Of a stretch of 42,149 nucleotides of DNA, positions 4,595 through 24,812 are shown one piece after another. The position numbers and the translations under genes are program-made. Positions within the stretch are counted from its first letter, which is position 1; every line of letters starts with the position of its first letter. This stretch comes from Candidatus Woesearchaeota archaeon (GTDB lineage: Archaea > Nanobdellota > Nanobdellia > Woesearchaeales > WJKR01), in assembly GCA_014729015.1 (NCBI GenBank), contig WJKR01000009.1:1-42149 (forward strand). Direction: 5' to 3'. The notes beneath the pieces were generated by a model. That model saw nothing but the letters and a program-made list of their open reading frames with translations, did no database searches and was not told where the DNA came from.

Positions 4595-5311
4595 ATGAGA
4601 CCGACCAAGACCTTTGACCAGGAACGAGCACAGTTCAACCTCGCCCGGTTGAGAAGAGCGGGCGGCAACTACGAGGTCGTCATCGACCCGGACAAGGCCA
4701 TCGCGTACCGCGAAGGGCGGTCGGTCGACCTCGACGAGGTGCTGCAAGCCCAGCAAGTGTTCTTCGACGCGAAGAAAGGGGAGCACGCTTCCGAGGACCG
4801 GATGCAAGAGGTGTTCGGCACCGTTGAGCCGCTCGTCGTGGCAAAGACCATCCTCGAGAAGGGAGAGATACAGCTGACCGCGGAGCACCGAGCGAAAGTG
4901 CGCGAGGAGAAGCTGAAACGGGTCGTCCAACTCATCGCGAAGAACGCGTGCGACCCGAAGAGCAAGCTACCGCACCCCCCGACACGCATCAGGAACGCGA
5001 TGGACGAAGCCAAGGTGCGCATCGACGAGTTCAAGAAACCAGAGGACCAGGTTAACGATATCATCAAGGCGTTGCGGCCGATACTCCCGATTAGCGTGGA
5101 GTCACGACGGGTCGCCGTGCACGTCCCCGCGACGCACGCAGGAAGGATGTACGGCGCGCTGCAATCATTCGGCACCATCACGCAAGAAGCGTGGCAGAAC
5201 GACGGTTCCTGGAAAGGGACCTTGGAGCTGCCAGCAGGCATGGTGCAGGAACTCATCGATAAGGTCAACAGCATGACCCACGGCGCCGCAACGATTGACA
5301 TGGTCAAGTAA
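4595..5311 (+). CDS. SBDS-family ribosome maturation protein (SDO1)
   Basis: 238 aa. ARLRRAGGNYEVVIDPDKAIAYREG is typical of the SBDS/COG1500 N-domain. It sits between psmA and rrp4, as in the archaeal exosome superoperon. Confidence 0.9.
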   Translation: MRPTKTFDQERAQFNLARLRRAGGNYEVVIDPDKAIAYREGRSVDLDEVLQAQQVFFDAKKGEHASEDRMQEVFGTVEPLVVAKTILEKGEIQLTAEHRAKVREEKLKRVVQLIAKNACDPKSKLPHPPTRIRNAMDEAKVRIDEFKKPEDQVNDIIKALRPILPISVESRRVAVHVPATHAGRMYGALQSFGTITQEAWQNDGSWKGTLELPAGMVQELIDKVNSMTHGAATIDMVK

Positions 5312-5333
5312 ACAACTACAGGTGAAAACAACT

Positions 5334-6167
5334 ATGGATTTACGAGTACAAGACAAAGAAGTCGTCGTCCCGGGACAGGTCGTCGCGACCGGCATGGAAT
5401 ACCTGCCGGCGGACGGCGCCTACCGATTGGATGACGAGATAAGGGCCAACAGACTAGGCCTGATCAAAATCGAAGGAAAAGTCATCAAGAGCATTCCTTT
5501 GACCGGCGTGTACCTGCCGCAAAAGAACGACGTAGTCGTCGGCCGCGTCATCGACATACTGATGAGCGGCTGGCGGCTGGACATCAACAGCCCGTACAGC
5601 GCCGTGCTCCCGATCAAGGACGCGACGTTCGACTTCATCGCGAAAGGCGCAGACCTGACCAAGTACTTCGACCTCGACGATTACGTTGTGGCGAAGATCA
5701 TACAGGTCACCAGCCAGAACCTGGTGGACGTGACGTGCAAAGGGCAAGGGCTCCACAAGCTCGACGGCGGACGCATCCTCAAGGTCGGGCCGCACAAGGT
5801 CCCGAGGATCATCGGCACCAAGGGCAGCATGATCACCATGGTCAAGAAGGCCACGAACTGCAGGGTTATCGTCGGCCAGAACGGCCGTATATGGCTCTCT
5901 GGCGAGCCCGACAAGGAGCACGTCGCGGTCAAGGCGATCAAGATGATCGAGGACCTGGCGCACACCGTCGGACTGACCGAGCAGGTGAAGTCATTCCTCG
6001 CAGAGCAGACCGGCTTGTCGGCCGACGCGCTGACGGTCAAGGAAGAGGACCTCGTCGCTGAGAGGCCGAAGGACGAGCAACGACATCGACGACCGCCCCG
6101 CAGGAGCGGCGGCACCCGTGACGGCCCCCGAAGGAGGCCGTACGGTGAGAGACGACAACGAAGGTGA
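5334..6167 (+). CDS. rrp4: exosome complex RNA-binding protein Rrp4 (S1 + KH), with an Arg-rich C-terminal tail
   Basis: 277 aa from the ATG at 5334, with GGTGA 8 nt upstream. S1-like GDVVVGRVIDILMSGWRLDI and KH GKVPRIIGTKGSMITMV. The last ~35 aa are RRPPRRSGGTRDGPRRRPYGERRQRR-like. Confidence 0.9.
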   Translation: MDLRVQDKEVVVPGQVVATGMEYLPADGAYRLDDEIRANRLGLIKIEGKVIKSIPLTGVYLPQKNDVVVGRVIDILMSGWRLDINSPYSAVLPIKDATFDFIAKGADLTKYFDLDDYVVAKIIQVTSQNLVDVTCKGQGLHKLDGGRILKVGPHKVPRIIGTKGSMITMVKKATNCRVIVGQNGRIWLSGEPDKEHVAVKAIKMIEDLAHTVGLTEQVKSFLAEQTGLSADALTVKEEDLVAERPKDEQRHRRPPRRSGGTRDGPRRRPYGERRQRR

Positions 6168-6174
6168 GATGAGT

Positions 6175-6897
6175 ATGGCATATGAGAAAAGAATCAGTGG
6201 ACGAGCATTAGACGAGCCGCGCAAGATCACCGCGAATGCGGGCGTGATCAAGAAAGCCGACGGCTCGGGCTATTTCAAGATCGGCGAGACCGCTGCGTAC
6301 GCGGCGGTGTACGGCCCTCGTGAGTGCCACCCCGCGTTCATGAGGAATCCGAAGATGGGCATCTTGCGATGCAATTACAGCATGATGCCGTTCTCCGGCG
6401 ACGGCGAACGCGTCAGGCCGGGGCCCTCCCGCAGGAGCAAGGAGATCAGTATGGTCACGAAGAACGCGTTGTTGCCGGTAGTCGACCTCAAGGAGTACCC
6501 GAACACGGTGGTCGACGTGTTCATCGAGTTGCCGGAGACCGACGCGGGGAGCAGGTGCGCAGGCATCTGCGCGGCGGCCATTGCCTTGGCGGATGCTGGC
6601 ATCACGATGCGGGACGTCGTGCCCGCGGTGAGCGTCGGTCAGGTCGACGGGACGATCGTCGTGGACCTCGACGGCGCGGAGGAGCACCTCGATGAGAACG
6701 CGGCTGCTGACATTCCCTTGGCCATGGTGCCGAGCACCGAGGAGATAACCTTGTTGCAGATGGACGGCATCGTCGAGCAGGACACGTTGTTCCGGGCGCT
6801 CGAGACGGTCAAGCCCGCGTTGCACAATATCGCGGAGGCGCAGCGCCGTGCGGTCAAGGAGTGCTACCAGCAACAGGCAGGGGGTGATGCGCAATGA
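6175..6897 (+). CDS. rrp41: exosome RNase PH subunit Rrp41
   Basis: RNase PH motifs PSRRSKEIS and TDAGSRCAGICAAAIALADAGI. An alternative ATG lies at 6169. GGTGA at 6163-6167 favours 6175. Confidence 0.9.
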   Translation: MAYEKRISGRALDEPRKITANAGVIKKADGSGYFKIGETAAYAAVYGPRECHPAFMRNPKMGILRCNYSMMPFSGDGERVRPGPSRRSKEISMVTKNALLPVVDLKEYPNTVVDVFIELPETDAGSRCAGICAAAIALADAGITMRDVVPAVSVGQVDGTIVVDLDGAEEHLDENAAADIPLAMVPSTEEITLLQMDGIVEQDTLFRALETVKPALHNIAEAQRRAVKECYQQQAGGDAQ

Positions 6898-7682
6898 ATC
6901 AGGAGCGAAAGAAGCACATCGTCCGTGCGTTGGCAGCGGGTGTCCGGCTGGACGGCCGGAAGCTTGACGAGTTCAGGCCCGTCGAGCTGAAGGTTGGCGT
7001 GTCCAGCACCGCTGAAGGTTCAGCCATGGTCAAGGCCGGTGACACAGAGGCCATCGCCGGCGTCAAGATGGGCTTGGGAACGCCGTACCCTGACACGCCG
7101 GACAGCGGCGTGTTGATGGTGAACGCGGAGTTGTTGCCGATATCGAACCCTGAGTTCGAGTCTGGTCCTCCCAGCATCGAGTCCATCGAGGTCGCCCGCG
7201 TCATCGATCGCGGCATCCGCGAGAGCCACTCGTTCGACACCAAGTCGTTGTGCGTGGAGAAGGGCGAGAAGGTCTGGATGGTGCAGTGCGACATCTTACC
7301 GCTCAATTTTGACGGTAACCTCATCGACCTCGGCGGCTTGGCAGTGCTCGCAGCGTTGCGCGACGCCCGCTTCCCAAAGGTTGACGAGGAGGGCGCTGTC
7401 GACTACCATGAGAAGACCGATAAGGGGTTGGCGTTGCAGCAGTTGCCTGTGCCGATCACGGTCGGCAAGATCGGCGAGCACCTCATCGTCGACCCGGCCC
7501 AAGAGGAGGAGCAGGCGTTGGACGCCCGTCTGACCATGACCATGCTCGCTGACGGCACGGTGTGCGCGTTGCAGAAAGGCGGACAGGCGCCGTTGACCAT
7601 CAGCGAGATTAAGGAGATGGTCAAGCTCGCCGATGCGAAGAGCAAGGAGCTCCGCAAGCAGCTGCTGGAGGTGGCCACATGA
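6894..7682 (+). CDS. rrp42: exosome RNase PH-like subunit Rrp42
   Basis: 262 aa. RNase PH fold ([18 protein letters not shown]). ATGA overlap with the rrp41 stop. Confidence 0.85.
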
Positions 7683-9284: not shown

Positions 9285-11135
9285 ATGAAAAAAACGTATG
9301 CATTACTGGTGATGGCGCTCATGGCCATGAGTTTGGTACCGGGAGCCACCGCGGTGAACACCGATAACGCGCTTGTCTCGACGAACGCTGCCGACGCGTC
9401 GAACACTACCGTGACTTCAGGGGACGACGACACCCCTGCTCCTGTGCTGACGAACAATGGGGACAGCACGTTCTATGATGCCTGCGTGTCCCGCGTGCAC
9501 CAGGAGTTTCCTGCCGCCGATGACGACCGGGCGGTGAGGTTCTGCCGTAAGGTCGCAGGCACCGCGGCGGTCGCGAGGTGCAAGCAGTACGTCCGTGAAG
9601 AGTTCCCCCACGCAGCTGCGGGCAAGCCGCTGGCATTCTGCAACGCCGTGATGGGATTGGTGGTCGCCGCTGATGACACTGCAGAAGCGGTCACTGCGGT
9701 GAGTAGCACGAAGACCCATTATGAGCGCTGCAAGGAGGTCTTGCTGGATGAGTTCCCAGGCGCTGACGAGCAACGCGTCCACCGATTCTGCGGTTTGAAG
9801 ACCATGACGAGGAACACGTGTGTCCGGCACTTGCGCAGCGAGTTCCCGGACAAGGAAGACGCTAACATCGTCCGCACCTGCAACCAGATAACCACTGCGG
9901 TCGCTGCAGCAGCGATTGAGAGCAACGTTCCTTCGTTGACTGCTGAGCAACGAGCACGACTCGAAAAACTTGAGATTGCCGAGGTGCGCAAAATAGTTGC
10001 TAATCATCCGAAGATTGCGAGGAAGATTGCTGCGTTCACCAATGCAGAAGTCGAGAAGCTAGGGAAACTTGACCGTGCTCGCCTCAAAGTATACGCTGGG
10101 AAGACCCCTGAAGAGATCAAGGAGGCACTGAAAAAGGTGCATGTCACCAGGGTCAAGAAGGAGGAGGCTTTCCGCAAACGGGTCGTCTCTGAGGAGCGGC
10201 TGCGAGCAGCCGAGAAGAAGTACCATAATGCGGTGCGGCATTACAACGCTGCGAAGGACGATTTCGTAGAGCAGAAGCGAGCATGGGAAGAGGCGGTGGA
10301 AGCAGGCGATGAGGCGGCCGCGATCGAGCACGCAAAAGCGTACTTGGGCCACGCCGTGGACATGGTCATCGAGTCTTTGGAGAAAGTGAGGGCGAAGATC
10401 GAAGCAAACGATGACATGGCTGAAGAGGACGTCGCTGAAGCGCTCGCTGATATCGACGAGAAGATCAGCACGATGGCATCATTACAGGAAGAGCTCGAAG
10501 CCGCTGAGACCAAGGAAGCGGTCAAGGCGGTGGGGAAGAAGATTCTTGCTGCTTGGGAGCGCACCAAGCACCGGCTCCACGTGCACGCGGAGAAGGTGGT
10601 GCGATCGCAGGTCGGTGAGATCATGTCCCGCAGCGAAGTGCTAGAGCAGCACTTGGACCGCTTGTTGGCGAAGATGGAAGAAGGTGGCATAGACGTCAGT
10701 GACTACGATGGAAAACTCGAGCTTTTCAGTGAGAAGATAGCTGATGCCCGGGAGAAGTTCAAGGCGTCAGAGGACTTGTTTGAGCAGGCGAAAGACGAAT
10801 ATGACCGGGACGCCTTCCAACGATCGAAGGAGCTCGCCCGAGAAGCCCATGACTTGCTGAAAGAGGCTCACCAGATATTGGTGGAGCTCGTGAGGGACGT
10901 GAAACAAGCCGGCTTCGACGTCGATGACGACGAGGAATACGTGGAAGTCATCGAAGAGGATGAGGACGACGAAGCGGTCGTTTGCTGTATGGCGATGACT
11001 GCTGAGTGCTTGGCATGCGTTGCCGGAGAGGACGTCGAAGACTACTGTGCCGACCACCCTGAAACTGCTGGTTGCGACGAGTACGTCGAAGGCGAGGAAG
11101 AAGGTAACGATACCGGCGGGAACGAGACCGCGTAA
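9285..11135 (+). CDS. secreted repeat / coiled-coil protein with a Cys-rich acidic C-terminus (function unknown)
   Basis: 616 aa. Signal peptide MKKTYALLVMALMAMSLVPGATA. Four C..EFP..C repeats, a long charged helical region, and a C-terminal CCMAMTAECLAC...C...C cluster. GGGAGG lies 8 nt upstream of the ATG. Confidence 0.7.
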   Translation: MKKTYALLVMALMAMSLVPGATAVNTDNALVSTNAADASNTTVTSGDDDTPAPVLTNNGDSTFYDACVSRVHQEFPAADDDRAVRFCRKVAGTAAVARCKQYVREEFPHAAAGKPLAFCNAVMGLVVAADDTAEAVTAVSSTKTHYERCKEVLLDEFPGADEQRVHRFCGLKTMTRNTCVRHLRSEFPDKEDANIVRTCNQITTAVAAAAIESNVPSLTAEQRARLEKLEIAEVRKIVANHPKIARKIAAFTNAEVEKLGKLDRARLKVYAGKTPEEIKEALKKVHVTRVKKEEAFRKRVVSEERLRAAEKKYHNAVRHYNAAKDDFVEQKRAWEEAVEAGDEAAAIEHAKAYLGHAVDMVIESLEKVRAKIEANDDMAEEDVAEALADIDEKISTMASLQEELEAAETKEAVKAVGKKILAAWERTKHRLHVHAEKVVRSQVGEIMSRSEVLEQHLDRLLAKMEEGGIDVSDYDGKLELFSEKIADAREKFKASEDLFEQAKDEYDRDAFQRSKELAREAHDLLKEAHQILVELVRDVKQAGFDVDDDEEYVEVIEEDEDDEAVVCCMAMTAECLACVAGEDVEDYCADHPETAGCDEYVEGEEEGNDTGGNETA

Positions 11136-11462: not shown

Positions 11463-12530
11463 ATGGAGCCGGTAATCATTGACGGCAGCGAGGGCGAAGG
11501 GGGCGGTGCCATGCTCCGGCAGGCGCTGGGGCTCAGCATGCTCCTGGGCAAGCCGTTCGTTATGGAGAACATTCGCGTCGGCAGGAAGAACCCAGGGCTG
11601 TCCTGGCAGCACCTCACCGCCTTGAATGCGGCGCACCAGGCCTGCGACGCGCGGGTGGAAGGCAACCAGATAGGCTCGATGACGGTCTCTTTTGCCCCTG
11701 GCAAGTTGGAGAAGACGCGGTTGTCCTTGGATATCGGCACCGCCGGTTCTGTCACGTTGCTGCTCCAGGCGTTCTTGCTCCCGGCGTTGTTCTCCGGCCA
11801 AGAGTTCCGCCTCGCCGTCAAGGGCGGGACCGACGTGGCGTGGAGCATCCCCGCAGATTATTTCAGCAACGTGCTGTTGCCGCAGCTGAAGAAGTACGCG
11901 GACGCCTCGTTGCTTGTACGGAAGCGGGGGTTCTACCCGAAAGGCGGCGGCGAGGTCTTGTTCACGAGCAAAGGGAGGTATGCGTTCGGTGAAGGATTGC
12001 CCCGTATTGCTTTGCTGGAGCAAGGCGACGTGTTCAAGGTCGGCGGGCTGAGCTGTGCGTCATCATTCCTGCAGCCTTCCCGCGTCGCTGAGCGGCAGGC
12101 GAGCAGCGCTCGTCTTTCCTTGGCACGATTAGGCGTGCCCGTCGATGTCATGATGAACTATCTGCAGACCCTGAGTCCCGGAAGCTACCTCGTGCTGTGG
12201 GTGGTCTGCGGCGGCGAGGAAGGCTTGGACATGGAGAACCCGGTCTTGCTGGGCGCTTCTGCGCTCGGCGAGCGCTCGTTACGCGCCGAATCAGTGGGCG
12301 AAGCTGCGGCGAAGGACCTGCGGGAAACGCTGATGAGCGGCGCTGCGTGCGACGAGCACCTCGCCGACCAGCTGATACCGATCATGGCCTTGACCGGCGG
12401 AAAGCTGCGCACGAGCAAGATTTCTCGGCACGCCCGCAGCAACGTCTACGTGGCGGAACAATTCCTGGACGTGTTGTTCGTGGTGGATGAAGAACGGAAT
12501 ATCATCAGCTGCGAGCCCGCTTCCGCTTAG
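11463..12530 (+). CDS. rtcA: RNA 3'-terminal phosphate cyclase
   Basis: 355 aa. IDGSEGEGGGAMLRQALGLSMLLGKPF...IRVGRKNPGL and GTAGSVTLLLQ are RtcA signatures. TTATATA at 11434-11440 lies 22 nt upstream of the ATG. Confidence 0.9.
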   Translation: MEPVIIDGSEGEGGGAMLRQALGLSMLLGKPFVMENIRVGRKNPGLSWQHLTALNAAHQACDARVEGNQIGSMTVSFAPGKLEKTRLSLDIGTAGSVTLLLQAFLLPALFSGQEFRLAVKGGTDVAWSIPADYFSNVLLPQLKKYADASLLVRKRGFYPKGGGEVLFTSKGRYAFGEGLPRIALLEQGDVFKVGGLSCASSFLQPSRVAERQASSARLSLARLGVPVDVMMNYLQTLSPGSYLVLWVVCGGEEGLDMENPVLLGASALGERSLRAESVGEAAAKDLRETLMSGAACDEHLADQLIPIMALTGGKLRTSKISRHARSNVYVAEQFLDVLFVVDEERNIISCEPASA

Positions 12531-14323
12531 CGTTCGAGCATGGCGAGGTGGAGGTCGGCGTAGAGCTCCCTGACAGCATCGTAGACCATGTCTTTTTCTT
12601 GGCCGGTGAGCTTTCCCTGCTCGTGCAGCCGCCGGAGCTCGTCGTAGAGCTGTTTCGCCTTGTCGAAATCCTTCTCCGCGATGGCTTTGGTGCAGTCGTC
12701 GATCTTCGTGACGATGTAGTGGTGCTCTTGCTCGAGCGCGGGTTTCGGGATGTCCTTGAACGAGATGTGGTCGGTCTTGATCTCCTTGAGCGCGTGCTGG
12801 AGGTATTTCTGGAAGCCCTCGTTGTCAATCTCGCGCTTCATCTTCTCGACCTCCGCCCGTTGGCTGCTGATGTCGTTGTCGACGGCGATGATCTTGTCCA
12901 CGGTGCCTTGGACGAGTTGCTCCCGTCGCTGCATGCGCTCCTCGTACGCCTTTTTCTCTGACTCGTACGCCTCCCGCTGTGCTTGCAGCGTGGCCATGCC
13001 GATGCGCAACTGCTCCTGCTCCTGCTCGAACTTCGCCCGCCCGTCCATGAGCGCTTGTTCGTCCGTCTTCTTCTTCTCGGCGAGGCCTGCTTCTCGCTGC
13101 TTGAGCTCTGCTTGTCGCTTGTCATAGGCCTCCTGCGCTTCTCGCTCCCGCCGGTCGAGGTCTCCCTCTCGTTGCGTGAGCTGTTGGACGACTCCTTCCT
13201 GCTCCTGGAGGAATGATTCCGCCGCTGCCTGTTGCTGCGCCAGCCGCTCTTCCTGCTCCTTGATATCCGCTGCCCAACTCTCCTGCTGTTCTCGGAGCCG
13301 AGCTTCTTGGTCTTTGAGCTCTTGCCGCACGCGCTTGAGCGCCTCTTCCCGCTCGGCGACCTGTTCCTCCTGGTGGTGGAGTTGGCGTACCTCCGCTGCG
13401 AGTGTCTCTCTGAGCTGGTGGTAGCGCTCGTCGAACGATTGCTGGTATGCCTGGAGCCCTTTGATGAGCTTTGCTTGGAGCTGCGGTGGGTTGAGCCTCG
13501 CCGACTGGCTTGCCCGCTGCGCGAGGTCGGCGATGCGCTGGACGAGCTCCTCCTTGTGCTCGGTGACGAGGTGCTGGTACGTCTCTTCGTCCATGAGCTC
13601 GAGCGCCTGCCGAAGGTCGTGGATGTTGCGGATGAGCGTCTCGTCCTTCTTGACGAGGAGCTTCTCGAGCGCTGCTGCGGTGGCGCCTTTGAGTGATGGC
13701 TGGCTGACCGCTGCATGGAGCTGGTCGAGTCTCGCCGACTGCTGCTGTTTGAGGTCTTCGAACTGCTGCTCCACTGGCGCTTCCTGCACATTCGCCACCG
13801 ACACGTCGTGGTCGAGCACCGCTCTGGTGCGCAGCGCTTGGTCAATCGTCTTGATGGCTGATTCCTTGTCCGCCGCTTCGCCGAGCTTGACGGCGAGGTC
13901 GGCGTCTGACAACTCGTGGTTCGTCCACGCCGTGAGGTCCTTCATTTGTTGGCGCTTCTTGAACTCCTCGGGCGTCATCGCGCCGACGGCTCGCTTAAGG
14001 TCGGCGAGCGTGAGCGCCTGCTTGCCGTCCGGCGTCTTGATGGCGACGGCCCGCTGCTTTTTGGTGAGCGATTGTTTCATGTCACCGAGTTGCCGCTCGA
14101 GGTCTGCCGAGCGCTTCCGCGCTCGGGGGCTGGCTTGCGCTTCGGTCTGCGCCTCGGCCGCTTCTTCGGGCAGCGGCTTCGGCATCTCCTTCTTGAGCTC
14201 TTCCTTGAGAAGCGAGACGTCTCGCCCTGAAGGTTTCTTCTTGCCGAAGAGCTTGCTGAACACCCCTGTCTTCTCGTCGCTTCCTCGTGGGAGAAGTGGC
14301 GGCCGTACTTCCTCATCGCTCAC
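12527..14323 (-). CDS. long coiled-coil protein, function unknown
   Basis: 598 aa. E/Q/K/R/A-rich heptad-like sequence across roughly residues 200-480, a disordered basic N-terminus and a helical C-terminal domain. GTG start with GGGTGA 6 nt upstream. Its stop overlaps the rtcA stop (TTAG). Confidence 0.7.
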   Translation of the reverse strand: MSDEEVRPPLLPRGSDEKTGVFSKLFGKKKPSGRDVSLLKEELKKEMPKPLPEEAAEAQTEAQASPRARKRSADLERQLGDMKQSLTKKQRAVAIKTPDGKQALTLADLKRAVGAMTPEEFKKRQQMKDLTAWTNHELSDADLAVKLGEAADKESAIKTIDQALRTRAVLDHDVSVANVQEAPVEQQFEDLKQQQSARLDQLHAAVSQPSLKGATAAALEKLLVKKDETLIRNIHDLRQALELMDEETYQHLVTEHKEELVQRIADLAQRASQSARLNPPQLQAKLIKGLQAYQQSFDERYHQLRETLAAEVRQLHHQEEQVAEREEALKRVRQELKDQEARLREQQESWAADIKEQEERLAQQQAAAESFLQEQEGVVQQLTQREGDLDRREREAQEAYDKRQAELKQREAGLAEKKKTDEQALMDGRAKFEQEQEQLRIGMATLQAQREAYESEKKAYEERMQRREQLVQGTVDKIIAVDNDISSQRAEVEKMKREIDNEGFQKYLQHALKEIKTDHISFKDIPKPALEQEHHYIVTKIDDCTKAIAEKDFDKAKQLYDELRRLHEQGKLTGQEKDMVYDAVRELYADLHLAMLER

Positions 14324-15872: not shown

Positions 15873-17060
15873 ATGGTTACATTCGCAGATTTCGGTTTGA
15901 AGCAGGAGCTCCTGCGCGCGTTGGACGACCTCGGTTTCTCGGAGCCGACCGCAATCCAGGAACAGGCCGTCCCGCTCGTCCTCGCAGGAGAGGACGTCAT
16001 CGGCATGTCTTATACGGGCAGCGGCAAAACCGCTGCTTTTGGCGTGCCGTTGCTGCACAACGTCGAGGACGGCTACGGCTTGCAGGTTCTCATCCTCTCG
16101 CCGACGAGGGAATTGGCGGTGCAGATCGCCGGCGAGCTGGAGAAGTTTGGCAAGTACATCGTCTGCAACGTCGCGACCGTGTATGGCGGCGTGGCGTACG
16201 AGCCGCAGCTCCGCGCGATGAAGGAGGCGCACGTCTTGGTCGCCACGCCCGGCCGACTCTTAGACCATCTGCGCCAGGGCAACGTCGACTTGTCCGGTAT
16301 CTTCTCCACAGTATTAGACGAGGCTGACAAGATGGTCGAGATGGGCTTCATCGAGGACGTCGAGGACATCTTGTCGTACACGCCTGAGGACCGCCAGCTC
16401 TTGTTGTTCGGCGCCACCCTTGCCGGTGAGATCGAACGCATCAAGGAGCAGTACATGTTCGAGCCCAAGGTCGCGAAGGCGACGCTCCACGTCGATGACG
16501 ACTTGCTGCGGCAGTATTATTACAATGTGAGGCCGCACGAGAAGTTCTCGTTGTTGCTGCACTTGTTGCGCAAGGAGCGGACCGACCAGGTCATGGTGTT
16601 CTGCTCGACGCGGTCGACGGTGGAGCTGGTCTCGGACAATTTGTCCTTGCAGGGCGTTGAGAACGTGATTATCCATGGTAAGATGGCGCAGAACTCCCGC
16701 CTGCGCGCCATTAGCAGGTTTAACCGCGGCGAGGTCAAGGTCTTGGTCGCCTCGGCGGTGGCTGCTCGCGGCTTGGATATCAAGGACGTGTCGCACGTCT
16801 TCAACTACGATGTCTCTCAGGACCCTCAGGAGTACGTGCACCGGATCGGCCGGACAGCGCGTGCCGGCGAGTCGGGCAAGGCGATCACGTTGTTGGCGCC
16901 GCAGGACCATGACGCGTTCAGCCTGGTGTTCCGGAACTATGGCATCTCGCCCGAGGAGTTGCCGTGTGAGCGTTTCCGGCGCGTGCCGTTCCGGACGGGC
17001 GCTGCTCGGAAGAATGGATCGGCCCGTCGTCCTCGTCGGAGGCCTACTCCTCGTAGGTAA
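15873..17060 (+). CDS. DEAD-box ATP-dependent RNA helicase
   Basis: 395 aa. Q-motif FSEPTAIQ, motif I TGSGKT, PTRELA, DEAD variant LDEADKM, SAT-equivalent, ARGLD and HRIGRTARAG. Arg-rich C-terminal tail. Confidence 0.9.
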   Translation: MVTFADFGLKQELLRALDDLGFSEPTAIQEQAVPLVLAGEDVIGMSYTGSGKTAAFGVPLLHNVEDGYGLQVLILSPTRELAVQIAGELEKFGKYIVCNVATVYGGVAYEPQLRAMKEAHVLVATPGRLLDHLRQGNVDLSGIFSTVLDEADKMVEMGFIEDVEDILSYTPEDRQLLLFGATLAGEIERIKEQYMFEPKVAKATLHVDDDLLRQYYYNVRPHEKFSLLLHLLRKERTDQVMVFCSTRSTVELVSDNLSLQGVENVIIHGKMAQNSRLRAISRFNRGEVKVLVASAVAARGLDIKDVSHVFNYDVSQDPQEYVHRIGRTARAGESGKAITLLAPQDHDAFSLVFRNYGISPEELPCERFRRVPFRTGAARKNGSARRPRRRPTPRR

Positions 17061-17709
17061 TGTTGCTGTTGTGGTAGACGCCTTTGTGCAGGGTGACCGG
17101 CCGCCAGTCGTCCTTGACCAGCGTTGCGTCAAGCCATTGCGCGAGCTCTTCGGGGTTGCCGATGGTGGCTGAGAGCGCGATGAGCTGTAGGTGCGGCAGG
17201 AGTTTTCTGAGGATGGCGATGACGACTTCTAGGGTTGGTCCACGGTTCGGGTCGTTGAGGAGGTGCACTTCGTCGAAGACGACGGTCTTCACCGTTTTGA
17301 GCCAGGGCGCGTGGTGGCGGAGCAGGGAGTCGAGTTTTTCGCTCGTAAGCACGATGAGGTCGTAGCGTTCGAGGTGTGTATCAGCGCTGTCGATGTCACC
17401 GCTGCTCATCCCGATATTGATGCCTGGGTAGGCCTTGGTGAACTGCTTGTGCTTCTCGTTCGCCAATGCTCTGAGCGGGACGACGTACAACGCCTTGCCG
17501 TGGTCGTGGATGATGCCGTTCAGCGCTGCGAGTTCCGCCACTAAGGTCTTTCCTGAGGCGGTCGGCGTGCAGACGAGGAGGTTCTCGTCGTCGAAGAGCC
17601 CTGCGTCGATGCTCTTGACTTGGCTTGGCCTTAGGGTGTTGAACCCTTTTTTTTCGAGCAATGCGAAGACTTTCGGCGGTATTTTTTGCTTGAGCTTACT
17701 CACTTGCAT
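17044..17709 (-). CDS. Hel308/Ski2-like helicase, RecA1 domain only (truncated or split gene)
   Basis: 221 aa. LRPSQV, CTPTASGKT, VVPLRALANEK, FDEVHLL and LSATIGNPEELAQWL...DWRPV align with the first ~220 aa of Hel308. The ORF stops at ITYEE. The downstream reverse-strand sequence is antisense to the DEAD-box gene and shows no RecA2 motifs. Confidence 0.75.
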   Translation of the reverse strand: MQVSKLKQKIPPKVFALLEKKGFNTLRPSQVKSIDAGLFDDENLLVCTPTASGKTLVAELAALNGIIHDHGKALYVVPLRALANEKHKQFTKAYPGINIGMSSGDIDSADTHLERYDLIVLTSEKLDSLLRHHAPWLKTVKTVVFDEVHLLNDPNRGPTLEVVIAILRKLLPHLQLIALSATIGNPEELAQWLDATLVKDDWRPVTLHKGVYHNSNITYEE

Positions 17710-17811
17710 GGTGATGAGTGGTTTGCCGCAGCTTATATATCTTGTTTCTCGTTTTCTTTCCGGAAGAGTTGCAACGATACTTTTTTATAATTGGATGTGC
17801 TTGGGGTGGTC

Positions 17812-18261
17812 ATGGTCGGGGAGACGCCGGGGATGAAGGACGCTGTTGACGATTTCAGGGCGAGCCGTGAGAACGCGAGCCAGGTGTTTTCCTCGAAGCT
17901 CGTGGTCGACGCCGCCGAGATTCGTCGGTTGGACGACCACGTCACGCATTTCTTGAAGCAGCTGCGCCAGGATGCTGCCAACCATGAGGTCGAGGTGTTG
18001 CGGAAGCACGCGAAGGAGTTCGAGGACGAGCTGCATGACGAGTTGGGCTTCTTGTTCAAGGCGACGAAGCAGGACCTGGAGTTGTACCAGAAGATTCTGC
18101 GGTCGTTGGCTGCGTACCGGAAGGAGTTGCGCTCCTTGCTCGGCGACCGCGAATTGGGGACTTTGGCCCATTCAGAGCTGAACTACGCCGACCTCTTGCT
18201 GAAGACGGCGCATGAGAAGCTGGACACGTTGATGCTCTTGTTCAAGAAGCTGCAGGTGTGA
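17812..18261 (+). CDS. hypothetical helical protein
   Basis: 149 aa from the ATG at 17812. TTTTTTATAA at 17781-17790 lies 21 nt upstream. The sequence is K/E/L-rich and helical. The competing reverse-strand ORFs are low-complexity. Confidence 0.5.
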   Translation: MVGETPGMKDAVDDFRASRENASQVFSSKLVVDAAEIRRLDDHVTHFLKQLRQDAANHEVEVLRKHAKEFEDELHDELGFLFKATKQDLELYQKILRSLAAYRKELRSLLGDRELGTLAHSELNYADLLLKTAHEKLDTLMLLFKKLQV

Positions 18262-18303
18262 ATCCCCGATAGTCTTATAAACACTTCTTGTTCCTGGTTG
18301 CGT

Positions 18304-20229
18304 ATGCGTTTCAGGGAGTTCGTGTTGGACCCGTTCCAGGAGGAGGCAGTCCGCGCGGTTGATCGTCACGAATCAGTGGTGGTGTCAGCAGCGACGGGTA
18401 CGGGCAAGACGCTCATCGCTGACTTCACCATTGACAAGTTCTTGCTGCGCGGCGGCCGTATCATCTATACCGCCCCTATCAAGGCGCTCTCCAACCAGAA
18501 GTTCAAGGACTTCAAGCGCGAGTACGGCGAGACGAACGTGGGTATCATGACCGGCGATGTGGTCATCAATCCTGATGCGGCGGTGCTGGTCATGACGACC
18601 GAGATCTACCGCAACATGCTCTTGGCCCGTGACCAGTTGGTCATGGATGTCTCGTACGTGGTGTTTGATGAGATACATTACATGAATGATCCTGAGCGAG
18701 GCACGGTGTGGGAGGAGAGTGTCATCTTCAGCCCTCCGCACATCCGCTTCTTGTGCTTGTCAGCCACGATTCCGAACGCCAAGGAGTTCGCTGGTTGGGT
18801 GCAGCACGTCAAGGAGCACAAGGTCTCCGTGGTACGGCATGACAAGCGAGCAGTGCCCTTGGAGCATTACGTGTACGATGTCGAGGCAGGCGTGACAACG
18901 GCAGAGAAGCTGCGCGGCCTGTTACGGATTCCTTCGTATGGTCGTGCCCGCGGCCGTCGTGGTCGCAAGTGGAGGCGGGACAAGCACGAGGCGCCCAAGC
19001 CCGAAGCGGTCATTCTCGAGATGCATGACAAGCTGCCGGCGATCGTGTTCTCCTTTTCCCGCAAGGGGTGCGAGGAGGAGGCGTGGCGCCTCGTGCAACG
19101 GCATGACTTCGTGAAAGGCGGTGATGAGCAGCGGAGGATTACCGAGGTGTACCGTCGTCATTTCACGCCCGAGGTGAACAAGATGCGCACCACGGCGAGG
19201 CTGCGGCAGTGCTTGTCCAAAGGCGTCGGCTTCCATCACGCGGGCTTGTTGCCGCAGCACAAGGAGGCGGTGGAGGAGTTGTTCGGCGCCGGGTTGTTGC
19301 AAGTGCTTTTTGCCACGGAGACCTTCAGCGTCGGTATCAACATGCCGGCGAAGACCGTCGTTTTCAATGGCTTGCGCAAGTTCGACGGCCAGAACTTCCG
19401 GATGGTCAATTCCAAGGAGTACTTCCAGCTTGCGGGGCGTGCCGGTCGTCGGGGGATTGATTCCATCGGTTATGTCGTGGCGATGGTCAATCGGCGGGAG
19501 AACAATGTCGATGAGCTGATCAAGGTGTCTGCTGCTGACACCGAGCCTATCAGGAGCCAGTTCTCGCTCTCGTTCAATACGGTGTTGAACCTGGTCGCGA
19601 TGTATGATGACCGGGAGATTGAGAAGGTATTGAAGAGCAATTTCGATTATTATCTCAAGCGTAAGCAGAGCAATCGCCAGGTGCGCGTCATGGCCTCGTT
19701 CAACAACAAGAGGCGCGTGTTGACGAAGATGCGGTACTTGACGAAGAATGGTGAGTTGACGGACAAGGGGTTGTTCGCGCGGTTCATCTACTTTGAGGAG
19801 TTGCTGGTGTCGGAGATATTCACGACGACGTTGTATGAGAAATTGACGGACACGGAGTTGTTGCAATTAATCGCCGCCATTATTTATGAGCAGCGCCAGA
19901 ATGACCATTTCTCGTTCAAGGGCATCCAGAAGCAGTACGAGCGTTTGTTGCGGAAGATTATCAGGACGAACCCGTTCGTGGAGAAGAAGCTGAACAAGTT
20001 GTCGTTGAAGCGGATGATGGCGCTCGTCGGCGCCTGGTCGGAAGGGACTGCTTTCAGTGACTTGTTGCCGTTGACGTCGCTGGCGGAAGGGGATATTATC
20101 AGGTTGTTCAGGCGTATCATCGACATGATCGGACAAATCCTTAGGGCGACGACCGATGACGAGTTGCGGGAACGATTGCACCAGTGCCAGGAGCGCATCG
20201 ATCGTGACCTGGTCACGGTGGAGTTCTAG
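18304..20229 (+). CDS. Mtr4/Ski2-type (HelY-like) RNA helicase without the arch insertion, with a DSHCT-like C-terminus
   Basis: 641 aa. AATGTGKT, IYTAPIKALSNQKF, GIMTGDVVINPDA..VMTTEIYRNML, FDEIHYMNDPERGTVWEE, LSATIPNAKEFAGW, FHHAGLLPQHKE, LFATETFSVGINMPAKTVVF and QLAGRAGRRGID. C-terminus WSEGTAFSDLL..LAEGDIIRLFRRIIDMIGQI. CTTATAAA at 18274-18281 lies 22 nt upstream of the ATG. Confidence 0.9.
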   Translation: MRFREFVLDPFQEEAVRAVDRHESVVVSAATGTGKTLIADFTIDKFLLRGGRIIYTAPIKALSNQKFKDFKREYGETNVGIMTGDVVINPDAAVLVMTTEIYRNMLLARDQLVMDVSYVVFDEIHYMNDPERGTVWEESVIFSPPHIRFLCLSATIPNAKEFAGWVQHVKEHKVSVVRHDKRAVPLEHYVYDVEAGVTTAEKLRGLLRIPSYGRARGRRGRKWRRDKHEAPKPEAVILEMHDKLPAIVFSFSRKGCEEEAWRLVQRHDFVKGGDEQRRITEVYRRHFTPEVNKMRTTARLRQCLSKGVGFHHAGLLPQHKEAVEELFGAGLLQVLFATETFSVGINMPAKTVVFNGLRKFDGQNFRMVNSKEYFQLAGRAGRRGIDSIGYVVAMVNRRENNVDELIKVSAADTEPIRSQFSLSFNTVLNLVAMYDDREIEKVLKSNFDYYLKRKQSNRQVRVMASFNNKRRVLTKMRYLTKNGELTDKGLFARFIYFEELLVSEIFTTTLYEKLTDTELLQLIAAIIYEQRQNDHFSFKGIQKQYERLLRKIIRTNPFVEKKLNKLSLKRMMALVGAWSEGTAFSDLLPLTSLAEGDIIRLFRRIIDMIGQILRATTDDELRERLHQCQERIDRDLVTVEF

Positions 20230-20618
20230 AACTGCAGATTTATCCTCACCAGTGAGTGGTTGATGAGAGCTGCGAGGACGCGTTGCTCTCCTTGGTTGAA
20301 GCTCTTGCTCAGCTCTTTCACCTTGATGAAGAACGCGTTTTCTTCCGGCTTGGTATTCACCCATATCTGCGTGGTCTGCTTGTCCTTGCCTTCGCCGAAG
20401 GAATGGTAGAAGCTCGCTTCTGCTTTTTTTTGTTCCAGCACCAAGAGTATCTCTCCGAGCTCGGCGTCGTTCATCTTGACCTTCTTCCACTGCCACTTGT
20501 CGCTGCTTTCGGTGCCGAAGTGGAACATGACCGTGCCGTCGTCGTACAACAAGTATTTGAAGCAGTTGCCTTTGCCGAAGAAGCTCCTCTTGATGAGCTG
20601 TTTTGGCGGTTGTTTCAT
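20226..20618 (-). CDS. hypothetical 130-aa protein (beta-rich halves each followed by a helix)
   Basis: The ATG at 20618 is the first start downstream of the shared TATA box (22-nt gap). MKQPPKQLIKRSFFGKGNCFKYLLYDDGTVMFHFG... The upstream part of track ORF 20226..21191 is antisense to the RNase D-like gene. Confidence 0.6.
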   Translation of the reverse strand: MKQPPKQLIKRSFFGKGNCFKYLLYDDGTVMFHFGTESSDKWQWKKVKMNDAELGEILLVLEQKKAEASFYHSFGEGKDKQTTQIWVNTKPEENAFFIKVKELSKSFNQGEQRVLAALINHSLVRINLQF

Positions 20619-20635
20619 GGATGATGGTAGGCGGA

Positions 20636-20653
20636 AAGGGTATTTATACCCTT
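20636..20653. promoter_or_regulatory. near-palindromic bidirectional TATA element
   Basis: AAGGGTATTTATACCCTT. The start codons of the divergent genes lie 22 nt (ATG 20618, minus strand) and 21 nt (GTG 20670, plus strand) from the TATTTATA core. Confidence 0.55.
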
Positions 20654-20669
20654 GGGCCGTGGCTGACCA

Positions 20670-21767
20670 GTGGGAAGCAAAACCTTTATGAAGGTGCGCC
20701 GGTCTATGATAGGCATGGTTTCCTTCACGCTCGTCGAGCGGGACGCGCAGCTGCGCGGCTTGGTGCAGCAGTGGCGTCGGGCTCGGGAATTGGCGATCGA
20801 CCTGGAGATGGAGGCGCACCTCCACCACTACGGCGTGCACCTCTCCTTGGTCCAGGTGTCTGACGGCAAGTGCGTGTGGGTGGTGGACATGCTGGCGATC
20901 ACTGACCCTTCTTCCTTGGTGGCGTTGTTCGAGGACGCACGCGTCGTGAAGGTCTTCCATGACGTCTCGTTCGATTTCCGCGTGTTGGAAGAATTGTTGG
21001 GGTGCAACCCGAAGAACATCTTTGACACCAAGGTGGCGGCGTTGCTGGCCGGCCGTGAGACGATCAGCCTCGGCGGCCTGCTGGAAGAGGAGTTCGGCGT
21101 GGTGAAGCAGGAGAAGTTCCAGCGCGTGGACTGGTTGGAGCGGCCGTTGTCGCGGGAGCGGTTGGCGTACGCCGCTGGTGACGTCGAGCACTTGTTGCGC
21201 TTGAAGGCAGTCTTGGTCAAGGAGTTGCGTTCTTTAGGCAGGCTGTCGTGGTGCGAGGAGGAATGCCGTTACTTGGAGCGCTCGTCGCACAAGGCGGAGG
21301 AGCGCACCTTTGATGATGTGAAGGGCGCGAAGGCGTTGTCTGAGCAGCGGCGCGGCGTGTTGCGGGAGTTGTACAAGGAGCGCGAGAAGCTGGCGAGGCG
21401 GTTGGACAAGCCCGTGTTTTTCGTGATCTCTGACAAGTTGTTGGTCGCTTTGGCGAAGCAGTCACCTCGTTCTGCGCGTCGATGGCAGTCGTTGAAGGGC
21501 GTGCATCCCGCTGTGCGCCGGGCTGCGAACAGGTTCGCCAGTGCGGTGTGTCGGGCGAAGCCGGCGCCGCGGATGGCGGTGAGGCGGCGGCGGTTGTCTC
21601 GCCGCCAGCGGTCCTCCTTGGACGCGTTGTTGGATCGCCGCGATGCCATCGCCCGTCGCCTCGGGTTGGAGCCGCACCTTGTCCTTTCCAAGGAGCAGGC
21701 GATCGCGGTGGTGACGAACGGCGGCGGTCCCCGTGCGTGGCAGCGCTCGTTGCTGTCCTTGACGTGA
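20670..21767 (+). CDS. RNase D / Rrp6-like DEDDy 3'-5' exoribonuclease with HRDC domain
   Basis: 365 aa. ExoI IDLEME, ExoII KVFHDVSFDFRVL, ExoIII AYAAGDVEHLLRL (the Y variant), then HRDC-like LRELYKEREKLARRLDKPVFFVISDKLLVALA and a basic tail. The start is uncertain: GTG 20670 fits the TATA spacing, and in-frame ATGs lie at 20688, 20706 and 20715. Confidence 0.85.
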   Translation: MGSKTFMKVRRSMIGMVSFTLVERDAQLRGLVQQWRRARELAIDLEMEAHLHHYGVHLSLVQVSDGKCVWVVDMLAITDPSSLVALFEDARVVKVFHDVSFDFRVLEELLGCNPKNIFDTKVAALLAGRETISLGGLLEEEFGVVKQEKFQRVDWLERPLSRERLAYAAGDVEHLLRLKAVLVKELRSLGRLSWCEEECRYLERSSHKAEERTFDDVKGAKALSEQRRGVLRELYKEREKLARRLDKPVFFVISDKLLVALAKQSPRSARRWQSLKGVHPAVRRAANRFASAVCRAKPAPRMAVRRRRLSRRQRSSLDALLDRRDAIARRLGLEPHLVLSKEQAIAVVTNGGGPRAWQRSLLSLT

Positions 21768-23632: not shown

Positions 23633-24094
23633 TTGCGCTCCCTTGTTCTTATTTTTTGTGTGTTGTTATCGGTCGGATTAGTCGCTGGTTTCGCTGGCTT
23701 GCCGGATATCGGTGAGGATCCTGGCGAGCCCGGTTTCCCAGTGCCGGAGCCGCCGCCGGGTCTTTCTGGTGAAGATGGTGGTGAAGGCGGTGCTGGTGGC
23801 GGCGCTTTCGGCGGCGGCTCGAACGCTTCAGTCGTTGACGATCAAGGAGAGCCTGTTGATGATGACCGAAAAGGCATTGCCGGGTTGTTCGGTGGCCGTG
23901 ACGACGCTGACGAGGACGAGTCCCAAGAAGGAGTTGATGGGGGTGGCGTTGCGGATGATGTCGCTGTCGGCGTGGTGCCTGACGTGCCTGTGCTGACCTG
24001 GTTGGTCGGTGGGTTGTTGGCGGTTGTCGTCATCGTCGTTGTCGGGTTGTTGTTGTGGCGGCGGAAGAGGCAGGAGTTGCCGGACAAGATATAG
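23633..24094 (+). CDS. secreted acidic Gly-rich protein with a C-terminal TM anchor
   Basis: Proposed TTG start at 23633, with GGTGA 4 nt upstream and overlapping the previous stop. This gives M-RSLVLIFCVLLSVGLVAGFA (signal-like), a D/E/G-rich middle, and VLTWLVGGLLAVVVIVVVGLLLWRRKRQ at the end. Confidence 0.5.
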   Translation: MRSLVLIFCVLLSVGLVAGFAGLPDIGEDPGEPGFPVPEPPPGLSGEDGGEGGAGGGAFGGGSNASVVDDQGEPVDDDRKGIAGLFGGRDDADEDESQEGVDGGGVADDVAVGVVPDVPVLTWLVGGLLAVVVIVVVGLLLWRRKRQELPDKI

Positions 24095-24104
24095 GGTGAT
24101 GGTG

Positions 24105-24812
24105 ATGCGTGCGTTGTACATGGATGACGCGTATCTCAAGGAATTCGATGCGGTGGTCAAGAGCGTCAAGGATGACAAGTACGTGGTGTTGGACAACACG
24201 GCGTTCTATCCGAACGGCGGCGGGCAGCCTTTTGATACGGGGAAATTGGTGAAGGACGGTGTCGCGTACCCGGTCGATTATGTGGGGAAGTTCGACGGCG
24301 ATATCAGCCATGAAGTTAGCGAACCTGGCTTGCAGGTCGGTGACGAGGTGCGTGGCGCCATCGATTGGGATCGCCGTTACAGGTTGATGCGTGCGCACAC
24401 CGCTGCCCATGTCGTCTCGGCGGTGTTCTATCATGATTTCAACTGCAGGATTACTGGTAACCAGTTGTCCGAGGAGAAGATAAGGATTGATTTCGACCTG
24501 GATGGTTTTGATAGGGGCGCGTTGCAGTCTTCTATTGATAAGGTGAACAACATTCTTGCGCAAAACTTGCCGGTGACCGTCACGTATTTGTCTCGCGAGC
24601 AGGCGTTGCAGGACTCGTCGTTGGTGAAGCTTGCGGGGGTGTTGCCGCCGGCGGTGCAGGAACTGCGTATTGTTGCTGTGGGTGGTGTGGATCGGCAAGC
24701 TGATGGCGGCACGCACGTCCGCAACACGTCCGAGGTCGGTCCTTTGGAGTTGTTGAAGGTGGAGAATAAGGGTAAGCGTAATCGTCGGGTGTATGTGCGC
24801 TTGTCGGAGTAG
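24105..24812 (+). CDS. alaX: alanyl-tRNA editing protein AlaX (AlaX-M type)
   Basis: 235 aa. YMDDAYLKEFDAVV, NTAFYPNGGGQPFD, MRAHTAAHVV (HxxxH) and GGTHVRNTSEVG. An alternative ATG lies at 24099. Confidence 0.85.
   Translation: MRALYMDDAYLKEFDAVVKSVKDDKYVVLDNTAFYPNGGGQPFDTGKLVKDGVAYPVDYVGKFDGDISHEVSEPGLQVGDEVRGAIDWDRRYRLMRAHTAAHVVSAVFYHDFNCRITGNQLSEEKIRIDFDLDGFDRGALQSSIDKVNNILAQNLPVTVTYLSREQALQDSSLVKLAGVLPPAVQELRIVAVGGVDRQADGGTHVRNTSEVGPLELLKVENKGKRNRRVYVRLSE

Follow-up and report, generated by a model that had tools for sequence, protein, structure and literature searches.

A predicted arch-free DExH helicase and a predicted RNase D are neighbours, probably not partners, in one sublineage of DPANN-type archaea

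The 42,149-nt stretch of DNA analysed here (contig WJKR01000009.1; hereafter the window) carries on its plus strand the gene of a predicted archless DExH helicase of 641 aa (18304..20229), followed by the gene of a predicted RNase D-type 3′-5′ exoribonuclease of 350 aa (20715..21767). According to Pfam, PDB and AlphaFold2 (AF2), the helicase consists of RecA1, RecA2, a winged helix and a helical bundle with the DSHCT domain; according to Pfam, NCBIfam and AF2, the nuclease consists of a DEDDy exonuclease domain, a first HRDC domain (HRDC1) and a predicted second HRDC-like domain. A third gene, on the minus strand, occupies the interval between them and encodes a conserved 130-aa protein (20226..20618). 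The original prediction for this locus saw in the helicase and the nuclease a candidate accessory module of the exosome, modelled on eukaryotic Mtr4 and Rrp6. Here we describe both proteins, the linkage of their genes among relatives and their phylogenetic position, and we weigh this proposal against other readings.

The helicase matches the Pfam families DEAD (E 1.9e-25) and Helicase_C (E 8.8e-10), and its residues 483-637 match DSHCT (PF08148) with an E-value of 1.2e-24 and 87.5 bits against a cutoff of 22.7. The motifs I (GTGKT, residues 32-36), II (DEIH, 122-125), III (SAT, 153-155) and VI (QxxGRAGRRG, 375-384) are invariant in 33 helicase homologues, and all six motifs that had been quoted in support of a Mtr4/Ski2-like helicase of 641 aa are present in the translation. 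The top match of a PDB sequence search was 6c90_A, an arch-deleted construct of human MTR4 (E 1.6e-120), with which the helicase is collinear (residues 5-637 on 70-727). The next matches were full-length Mtr4 and Ski2, in which the alignment is split at their arch insertion site. Bit scores were 392-407 for Mtr4, 352-363 for Ski2, 170 for Slh1, 137-164 for Hel308 and at most about 140 for Brr2; Hel308 structures reached E-values of only about 1e-43 to 1e-47. The AF2 model, computed with the 33 homologues, has a pLDDT of 87.3, and the best Foldseek match is again 6c90_A (TMq 0.84), compared with about 0.72 for Hel308 structures. Judged by these matches, the helicase is an archless member of the Mtr4/Ski2/HelY family (COG4581-type, with DSHCT) and belongs neither to the Hel308 nor to the ASH-Ski2 type. 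That such a helicase is unusual for archaea, as had been stated, agrees with the work of Batista et al. 2024 (PMC10946056), who used COG1202, COG1204 and COG4581 to search 294 genomes of archaea and 10 of eukaryotes and found the COG4581 (Mtr4/Ski2) group to be exclusively eukaryal, without a member in 75 Asgard genomes.

The DSHCT-like end and the lack of the arch, both noted from the sequence before, were confirmed. Only 60 residues lie at the arch site, between helicase positions 420 and 480, compared with 267-559 residues in long eukaryote-type forms, and the alignment with yeast Mtr4 skips from residue 521 to 772 at helicase position ~433. Just 4 residues precede the RecA1 core, and the N-terminal extension of Mtr4 is absent, residue 4 of the helicase being aligned with residue 146 of full-length yeast Mtr4 (6fsz_MM).

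The downstream protein is, as had been proposed, a DEDDy nuclease of the RNase D/Rrp6 family with an HRDC domain. It matches the Pfam families DNA_pol_A_exo1 (E 2.4e-30) and HRDC (E 1.3e-13), and the residues D29, E31, D87, Y152 and D156 (350-aa numbering) do not vary among 36 homologues and align with those of E. coli RNase D. The gene lies where it had been placed, but its start is more likely the ATG at 20715, giving 350 aa, than the GTG at 20670 chosen originally, because the homologues start at this ATG and a 4-nt indel in the related locus L026 (loci and single sequences are cited here by our L and P numbers) breaks the frame between both codons. A shared leaderless start at GTG 20670 was rejected on account of the same indel and the conserved ATG. 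The NCBIfam model TIGR01388 ('rnd') is collinear with residues 22-349 and scores 183.6 bits, under its cutoff of 298.95; by sequence, the nuclease is a divergent RNase D and not the curated TIGR01388 equivalog.

The AF2 model of the nuclease (pLDDT 92.7) has its best fold match in E. coli RNase D (1yt3; 365 columns, TMq 0.80), whereas Rrp6 structures match the EXO-HRDC1 part only (about 297 columns, TM 0.65-0.70). A second HRDC-like bundle at the C-terminus is seen in the AF2 model only, together with the collinear TIGR01388 match that runs to residue 349; a Pfam search of the last 85 residues with E-values up to 10 returned nothing. The last 60 residues, which extend beyond the alignment with Rrp6, fold in the model as this RNase D-like bundle. 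The C-terminal exosome-associating region of Rrp6 has no counterpart, the alignment with yeast Rrp6 ending at residue 518 of 733. PMC2NT gave no Pfam match in the nuclease; the alignment starts at Rrp6 residue 215-216, and about 20 residues of the nuclease lie ahead of its exonuclease domain. In its modelled architecture (DEDDy, HRDC1, HRDC2), the nuclease is an RNase D orthologue, and the single sequence matches E. coli RNase D with 8e-29 and Rrp6 with 6e-22.

Both proteins have numerous relatives in archaea. The names Woesearchaeota or Nanoarchaeota are carried by hundreds of helicase homologues (630-650 aa) and, for RNase D (about 350 aa), by about 100 clusters of homologues; here and below, the lineage of an archaeal homologue is the name given by the submitter of a metagenome-assembled genome. 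The names 'Methanosarcinales', 'Thermoplasmatota' and 'Heimdallarchaeota' on some close homologues were not accepted, as these sequences sit inside the Woesearchaeota-named clade, some of them on very short contigs.

The linkage of the two genes was surveyed in 25 distinct archaeal helicase loci, taken from species-representative genomes, from contigs with database homologues and from a metagenome scan. Helicase and RNase D genes were found adjacent or at most 1.5 kb apart only in the window and in the loci L001 (75% helicase identity), L026 (77%) and L049 (69%). L049 has one extra minus-strand gene, that is, two such genes between helicase and RNase D. In L036 (70% helicase identity) the helicase is followed by the small gene, and the contig ends before the RNase D position. 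These five loci represent one sublineage and share a syntenic block of DUF1385, a half-length Hel308 gene, an open reading frame (ORF) of about 150 codons and the helicase. No RNase D gene was present within up to 10 kb in the sister lineages L002-L004 and L028/L029 (68-69% helicase identity), and L028 retains the gene order of the window (CarboxypepD_reg/DUF7343 ... helicase ... AlaX ... ribonucleotide reductase) without the RNase D. In total, the linkage is absent in L002-L008, L010-L016, L025, L028, L030, L032, L034 and L048. At least 15 distant archaeal loci are unpaired, with the exception of L009, in which the two genes lie 5 kb apart on opposite strands. The neighbours in the distant helicase loci are unrelated (response regulators, the pentose-phosphate pathway, GAPDH, SRP54), and no exosome genes were found in those surveyed. 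Likewise, no helicase lies near the RNase D in three distant RNase D loci (L045-L047) and no RNase D near the related helicase in eight Bacillota loci. The loci of the relatives are archaeal by context, with genes for thermosome, S-layer, archaeal CCA enzyme, RNA polymerase Rpb5/Rpb2, aCPSF1, a TFIIS ribbon and fibrillarin. The pairing is hence confined to one sublineage, and the conserved linkage among archaeal carriers on which an accessory module would have drawn was not found.

The arrangement within the window also bears on co-expression. A TATA-like box, TTATAAA, read from the sequence at 18274..18280 (+), is centred 27 nt before the helicase ATG and suggests that transcription of the helicase starts from a promoter of its own and gives an RNA with a short leader or none. 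The 130-aa gene is convergent with the helicase, the stop regions overlapping by 4 nt, and divergent from RNase D. The small gene in between, pointed out in the original prediction, is real: copies with 64-77% identity occupy the same place in L001, L026 and L049. Between it and the RNase D gene lies a predicted divergent promoter region (20641..20692) with two TATA-like boxes, TATTTATAC on the minus strand (20641-20649), 27 nt from the ATG of the small gene, and CTTTATGAA on the plus strand (20684-20692), 27 nt before the RNase D ATG. Both boxes are kept in L026 though the flanks vary. Because the convergent gene intervenes and the TATA-like boxes are separate, helicase and RNase D are not an operon, and their linkage is lineage-restricted. 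The 130-aa protein has neither a Pfam nor an NCBIfam match. It is a family of its own, better conserved (64-77%) than the neighbouring RNase D (51-58%), and homologues at 50-55% occur in the metagenome loci L037-L041, where they adjoin neither helicase nor RNase D.

In two of the distant loci, RNase D is preceded on its own strand by a gene for an FmrO-family rRNA methyltransferase, directly in L046 (7070-7945) and one gene away in L047 (6270-7058). In L048 (9424-10182) an FmrO gene adjoins fibrillarin and is two genes from the helicase. This context gives a faint hint that both enzymes take part in rRNA or tRNA maturation.

A scan of 1.84 billion cluster representatives yielded 22,847 matches to the helicase, of which the best 150 were analysed. 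At the arch site these fall into three classes, with no insertion (about 625-700 aa in total), with an insertion of about 110-120 aa (about 735-810 aa) or with a long arch (850-1380 aa). The mini-insertion form occurs in Bacillota (Desulfitobacteriaceae, including the cultured Paradesulfitobacterium ferrireducens), Wallbacteria and Muiribacteriota, and the long form in a Chloroflexota representative of 970 aa. Archless forms of 650-700 aa, some annotated as HelY, are found in Omnitrophota, Planctomycetota and Actinomycetota, so loss or absence of the arch is common in bacteria. The window helicase is 44.5% identical to the Paradesulfitobacterium protein, 43-44% to those of Wallbacteria and Muiribacteriota and 38.5% to human MTR4.

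In the Bacillota helicases (about 748 aa; L017-L024, e.g. L024 10001-12220), the insertion comprises about 115 aa and has four conserved cysteines (C-x8-CP ... CP-x6-C). Its site corresponds to residues ~447-463 of the window helicase and to the arch site of eukaryotic Mtr4/Ski2, and it may be a small zinc-binding 'mini-arch'. Many representatives of 735-810 aa have an insertion of the same size.

Helicase trees were computed by neighbour joining from corrected p-distances of 160 sequences over 530-579 trimmed columns, with four distance corrections and 800 bootstrap replicates (200 + 600). The archaeal clade was monophyletic in 71-80% of replicates and the eukaryotes (Mtr4 and Ski2, including human MTR4) in 100%, while a split uniting the archaeal clade with the eukaryotes appeared in none of the 800 (0/200 and 0/600). 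Since the unrooted trees do not contain this split, the archaeal clade and the eukaryotes cannot be made exclusive sisters by any choice of root. Eukaryotes grouped with bacterial HelY-like groups (those with names being Actinomycetota P0304 and Chloroflexota P0351) in 76-88% of replicates. Rooting with three Hel308 RecA1 sequences, two from PDB alignments and one from the window, was uninformative: in 200 of 200 Hel308-rooted replicates the root fell on small groups of at most five taxa without a member of the archaeal clade or the eukaryotes, in the point tree on P0298, and never on the stem of either of these two. A deep member of the archaeal clade, P0249, adjoins fibrillarin but also a sigma-70-like gene. 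P0320 is an archless sequence of 706 aa inside an otherwise long-arch, eukaryote-type Mtr4 clade.

The group nearest to the archaeal nucleases is a bacterial RNase D of about 380 aa, found in sigma-70 and MMPL contexts; the mean distance to it was 1.42, while Rrp6 (1.72) and E. coli RNase D (1.97) were farther away. The split of archaeal and eukaryotic nucleases was likewise not recovered (0/200 replicates). Across the helicase and nuclease trees, the archaeal clades had 66-80% support. Phylogenies of both proteins with their eukaryotic counterparts had been named as the check on the original prediction; in the neighbour-joining trees, neither protein groups with Mtr4/Ski2 or with Rrp6.

The window itself probably comes from a small archaeon of the Woesearchaeota/Nanoarchaeota type of DPANN. 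By Pfam, it contains an archaeal superoperon with Pop5/Rpp14, proteasome alpha, SBDS, Rrp4, Rrp41 and Rrp42; further genes encode RtcA, an AlaX-like protein, a class II ribonucleotide reductase and MetRS. For three window genes (helicase, nuclease and Hel308 half), the best database homologues carry the names Woesearchaeota or Nanoarchaeota. GC content around the helicase and nuclease genes is 0.56-0.59, the same as in the flanks. The exosome core genes, all on the plus strand, are Rrp4 (5295-6167; Pfam RRP4_S1/KH/ECR1_N), Rrp41 (6118-6897) and Rrp42 (6894-7682), the latter two with RNase_PH and RNase_PH_C. They lie within the superoperon, and the distance from this core (5295..7682) to the helicase, given before as roughly this value, is 10.6 kb.

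In the interval, two further helicase genes had been announced. One is indeed a DEAD-box RNA helicase of 395 aa (15873..17060, +; Pfam DEAD 6.3e-45, Helicase_C 2.1e-33), but the other is only the RecA1 half of Hel308/Hjm, a stand-alone gene of 221 aa (17044..17709, −) that shares 17 nt with the 3′ end of the DEAD-box gene. It matches residues 7-217 of P. furiosus Hjm (PDB 2zj2; E 3.7e-60). Its best 120 database matches are all 216-274 aa long, 64-78% identical and named Woesearchaeota or Nanoarchaeota, and copies are present at L026 7923-8588, L030 13619-14278 and L049 5807-6487. On these sequence matches, the RecA1-only Hel308 is a conserved stand-alone gene of the lineage and possibly one piece of a split Hel308; the RecA2-winged helix-ratchet half was not found in the window. 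Between it and the helicase lies, on the plus strand, an ORF of 156 aa (17791..18261), which ends 43 nt upstream of the helicase, has no credible Pfam or NCBIfam match and recurs at the same position in L001, L026 and L049 (tblastn, 52-70% identity).

Other genes of the window are mentioned in short. A stand-alone AlaX-like protein of 267 aa (24009-24812, +) covers no more of the AlaRS catalytic-domain model than its C-terminal end and also contains the editing-associated domain tRNA_SAD, and its gene is kept at the syntenic place in L028. Two ORFs, of 616 aa (9285-11135, +) and 598 aa (12527-14323, −), match neither Pfam nor NCBIfam and have syntenic counterparts in the related contigs L026 and L028. 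An ORF of 1423 aa (35778-40049, +) has no Pfam match.

We consider it likely that helicase and RNase D are two independent housekeeping genes of RNA metabolism which are neighbours in one DPANN sublineage, that is, a lineage-specific adjacency. Taken together, both are probably general RNA-processing enzymes of a reduced archaeal lineage. By analogy with Mtr4/Ski2 and HelY, the helicase would load on a single-stranded 3′ tail, translocate in 3′-to-5′ direction driven by ATP and unwind structured RNA or RNA:DNA hybrids. RNase D, by homology, would trim the 3′ extensions of stable RNA precursors, e.g. of tRNAs and small RNAs, in a distributive manner. Transcription would start from separate promoters, for the helicase alone and for RNase D divergently from the small conserved gene. 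Substrates may pass from one enzyme to the other, or on to the exosome, as they might from any 3′-5′ helicase; sequence, context and phylogeny contain nothing specific for such a hand-over between helicase, RNase D and exosome. Since the archaeal clades are broad and their nearest relatives bacterial and not eukaryotic, an old, separate acquisition from, or sharing with, bacteria would be the simplest history; vertical descent would have followed, and the adjacency would have arisen through local rearrangement within one sublineage.

Several observations weigh against this reading or limit what the trees can tell. The linked sublineage keeps the genes 0.5-1.5 kb apart although the nuclease has diverged to 51% identity (L049), a persistence that exceeds a very recent accident, and one broad lineage possesses both helicase and RNase D. 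On yeast and human Rrp6/EXOSC10, the profile of the archaeal RNase D family scores 163 and 162 bits, on E. coli RNase D 137, and the best nuclease tree puts the archaeal clade beside the Rrp6 pair within a bacterial assemblage, without support. The trees were obtained by distance methods only, from the best 150 cluster representatives, a minority of which have taxon names, and as the root of the helicase tree was not confidently placed, we make no claim on the direction of transfer. The idea that the nuclease is Rrp6-like rather than RNase D-like, raised by the profile scores, was rejected in view of its nearest relatives in the bacterial RNase D group, its modelled RNase D domain layout and the lack of the archaeal-eukaryotic split in 200 replicates.

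The persistence of the linkage would be explained if selection for co-regulation held together a functional helicase-nuclease pair, a lineage-specific analogue of Mtr4-Rrp6 made from bacterial-type parts. In it, the archless helicase would open structured 3′ ends and deliver them to RNase D and perhaps to the exosome. Helicase and RNase D families are both common across this DPANN lineage, their genes stay no more than 1.5 kb apart in the window, L001, L026 and L049 despite 51% nuclease identity and within 5 kb in L009, the genome encodes the Rrp4/Rrp41/Rrp42 core, and 3′-5′ helicases are repeatedly found paired with 3′ exonucleases, as in Mtr4-Rrp6 and Ski2-exosome (PMC3838930). However, there is no operon, a convergent gene lies in between and the predicted promoters are separate; the linkage is missing from about 20 of the 25 archaeal helicase loci and all three distant RNase D loci, and the eukaryotic interface elements are absent. 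We regard such a pair as unlikely. Quite unlikely, too, is a more specific version, in which the archless helicase and RNase D of bacterial affinity are recruited to the archaeal Rrp4/Rrp41/Rrp42 exosome, the helicase threading structured RNA into the cap and RNase D acting as a second, distributive 3′ trimmer. If this were true, the recruitment would be an independent, convergent case of the Mtr4-Rrp6-exosome logic outside eukaryotes, and the linkage in the sublineage its genomic trace. The helicase could instead act mainly on DNA or R-loops in repair or replication, compensating for the split Hel308 and unrelated to RNA decay. The 221-aa RecA1-only Hel308 two genes upstream, which is near the helicase in several loci, speaks for this, as does the unwinding of RNA:DNA hybrids by HelY (as cited in PMC8931766). 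But DSHCT and the membership in the Mtr4/Ski2/HelY family point to loading on an RNA strand, HelY not unwinding with DNA as the loading strand according to the same paper, and no repair-gene context was found at the loci examined. We judge a DNA role improbable.

The original prediction goes furthest if the two genes are taken as an ancestral archaeal Mtr4-Rrp6-type module, the forerunner of the eukaryotic nuclear exosome cofactors. The best structure match of the helicase is MTR4, the nuclease family profile favours Rrp6/EXOSC10, the exosome core lies in the same window, and one helicase homologue (P0066), from a contig of 2.9 kb, bears the name Heimdallarchaeota, which we do not accept as it stands. 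Against these stand the trees, with the required splits in 0/800 helicase and 0/200 nuclease replicates and eukaryotic Mtr4/Ski2 placed with bacterial HelY-like proteins. The carriers are DPANN-type and not Asgard archaea, the relatives of eukaryotes, none of the group having been found in 75 Asgard genomes (PMC10946056). Missing from the helicase are the arch and the N-terminal extension of Mtr4, and from the nuclease PMC2NT and the exosome-binding region of Rrp6, a second HRDC-like domain being predicted instead; the linkage is limited to one sublineage. The tests run largely refute an ancestral module, which we hold to be very improbable, and the exosome accessory role modelled on Mtr4-Rrp6 fails most of the refuting conditions that had been set with the original prediction. 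The alternative named at the outset, an imported bacterial pair of HelY and RNase D, was right about the affinity, as outside archaea both proteins have their nearest relatives in bacteria, but wrong about a pair: the genes are unlinked in eight bacterial loci and most archaeal loci. Nor is a recent horizontal import into this genome compatible with hundreds of archaeal homologues in clades with 66-80% support, a GC content equal to that of the flanks, archaeal-type TATA-like upstream boxes and a region syntenic with relatives; we find it hardly credible.

Accounts of 3′-5′ RNA decay in archaea usually include no helicase dedicated to it. Our analysis adds to this a large, coherent DPANN clade of archless DSHCT helicases and a matching clade of RNase D, both of which bear on stable-RNA processing in reduced archaea. 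The literature searched makes no mention of DSHCT helicases or RNase D in DPANN archaea, and both clades are apparently undescribed there; in databases their members are annotated as 'DEAD/DEAH box helicase', 'superfamily II RNA helicase' or 'ribonuclease D'. Both clades fall within known families, and archless helicases of bacteria are already known. The grouping of eukaryotes with HelY-like proteins in our trees, and not with the archaeal clade, argues against a simple archaeal ancestry of the Mtr4/Ski2 exosome cofactors. The value of the findings lies in a corrected phyletic picture and in a compact, arch-free helicase for biochemistry, not in an archaeal Mtr4-Rrp6 module.

In eukaryotes, Mtr4 docks on the exosome via its N-terminal extension, which is bound to the PMC2NT-Rrp47 module of Rrp6, while Rrp6 is tethered to the exosome through its C-terminal region, and the N-terminal extension of Ski2 binds Ski3/Ski8. 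The three elements used by Mtr4 and Rrp6 are absent from the window proteins, which may still touch the archaeal cap proteins in some other way. The window helicase resembles Mtr4 (6c90) in its full-length collinearity (TM 0.84), in all helicase motifs and in DSHCT, but it lacks the arch/KOW insertion and the N-terminal extension and never falls into the eukaryotic clade; no evidence was found for partners of the TRAMP, NEXT or Ski type. The nuclease shares with Rrp6/EXOSC10 the DEDDy and HRDC catalytic core. Unlike these proteins, it aligns (in 365-aa numbering) only from Rrp6 residue 216 onwards, has the predicted second HRDC-like domain and lacks the exosome-associating tail. Its likeness to E. 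coli RNase D (1yt3) is in size, modelled three-domain layout and fold (TMq 0.80), whereas the identity between the two is just 26% and the archaeal family is nearer to the bacterial group of about 380 aa. With Hel308 and ASH-Ski2 helicases, the window helicase has in common the Ski2-like ring of RecA1, RecA2, winged helix and ratchet; it differs in a C-terminus formed by DSHCT and not by the HhH domain 5 and in lacking the N-terminal zinc finger of ASH-Ski2.

The closest known counterparts of the helicase are the bacterial HelY-like proteins. For HelY of M. smegmatis, PMC8931766, citing Uson et al. 2015, gives unwinding of RNA:DNA hybrids with a 3′ single-stranded tail as a requirement, and no unwinding with DNA as the loading strand. 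At the arch site, where the window helicase has no insertion, the sampled helicases of Bacillota, Wallbacteria and Muiribacteriota have one of about 110-120 aa and the Chloroflexota representative a long one. The archaeal helicases are further set apart by their host and by forming a clade of their own (71-80% support). They share with the bacterial HelY-like proteins the DExH core, the winged helix, the helical bundle with DSHCT and the occurrence as stand-alone genes, and the identity of the window helicase to these relatives, 40-45% over about 565 trimmed columns, is above that to human MTR4.

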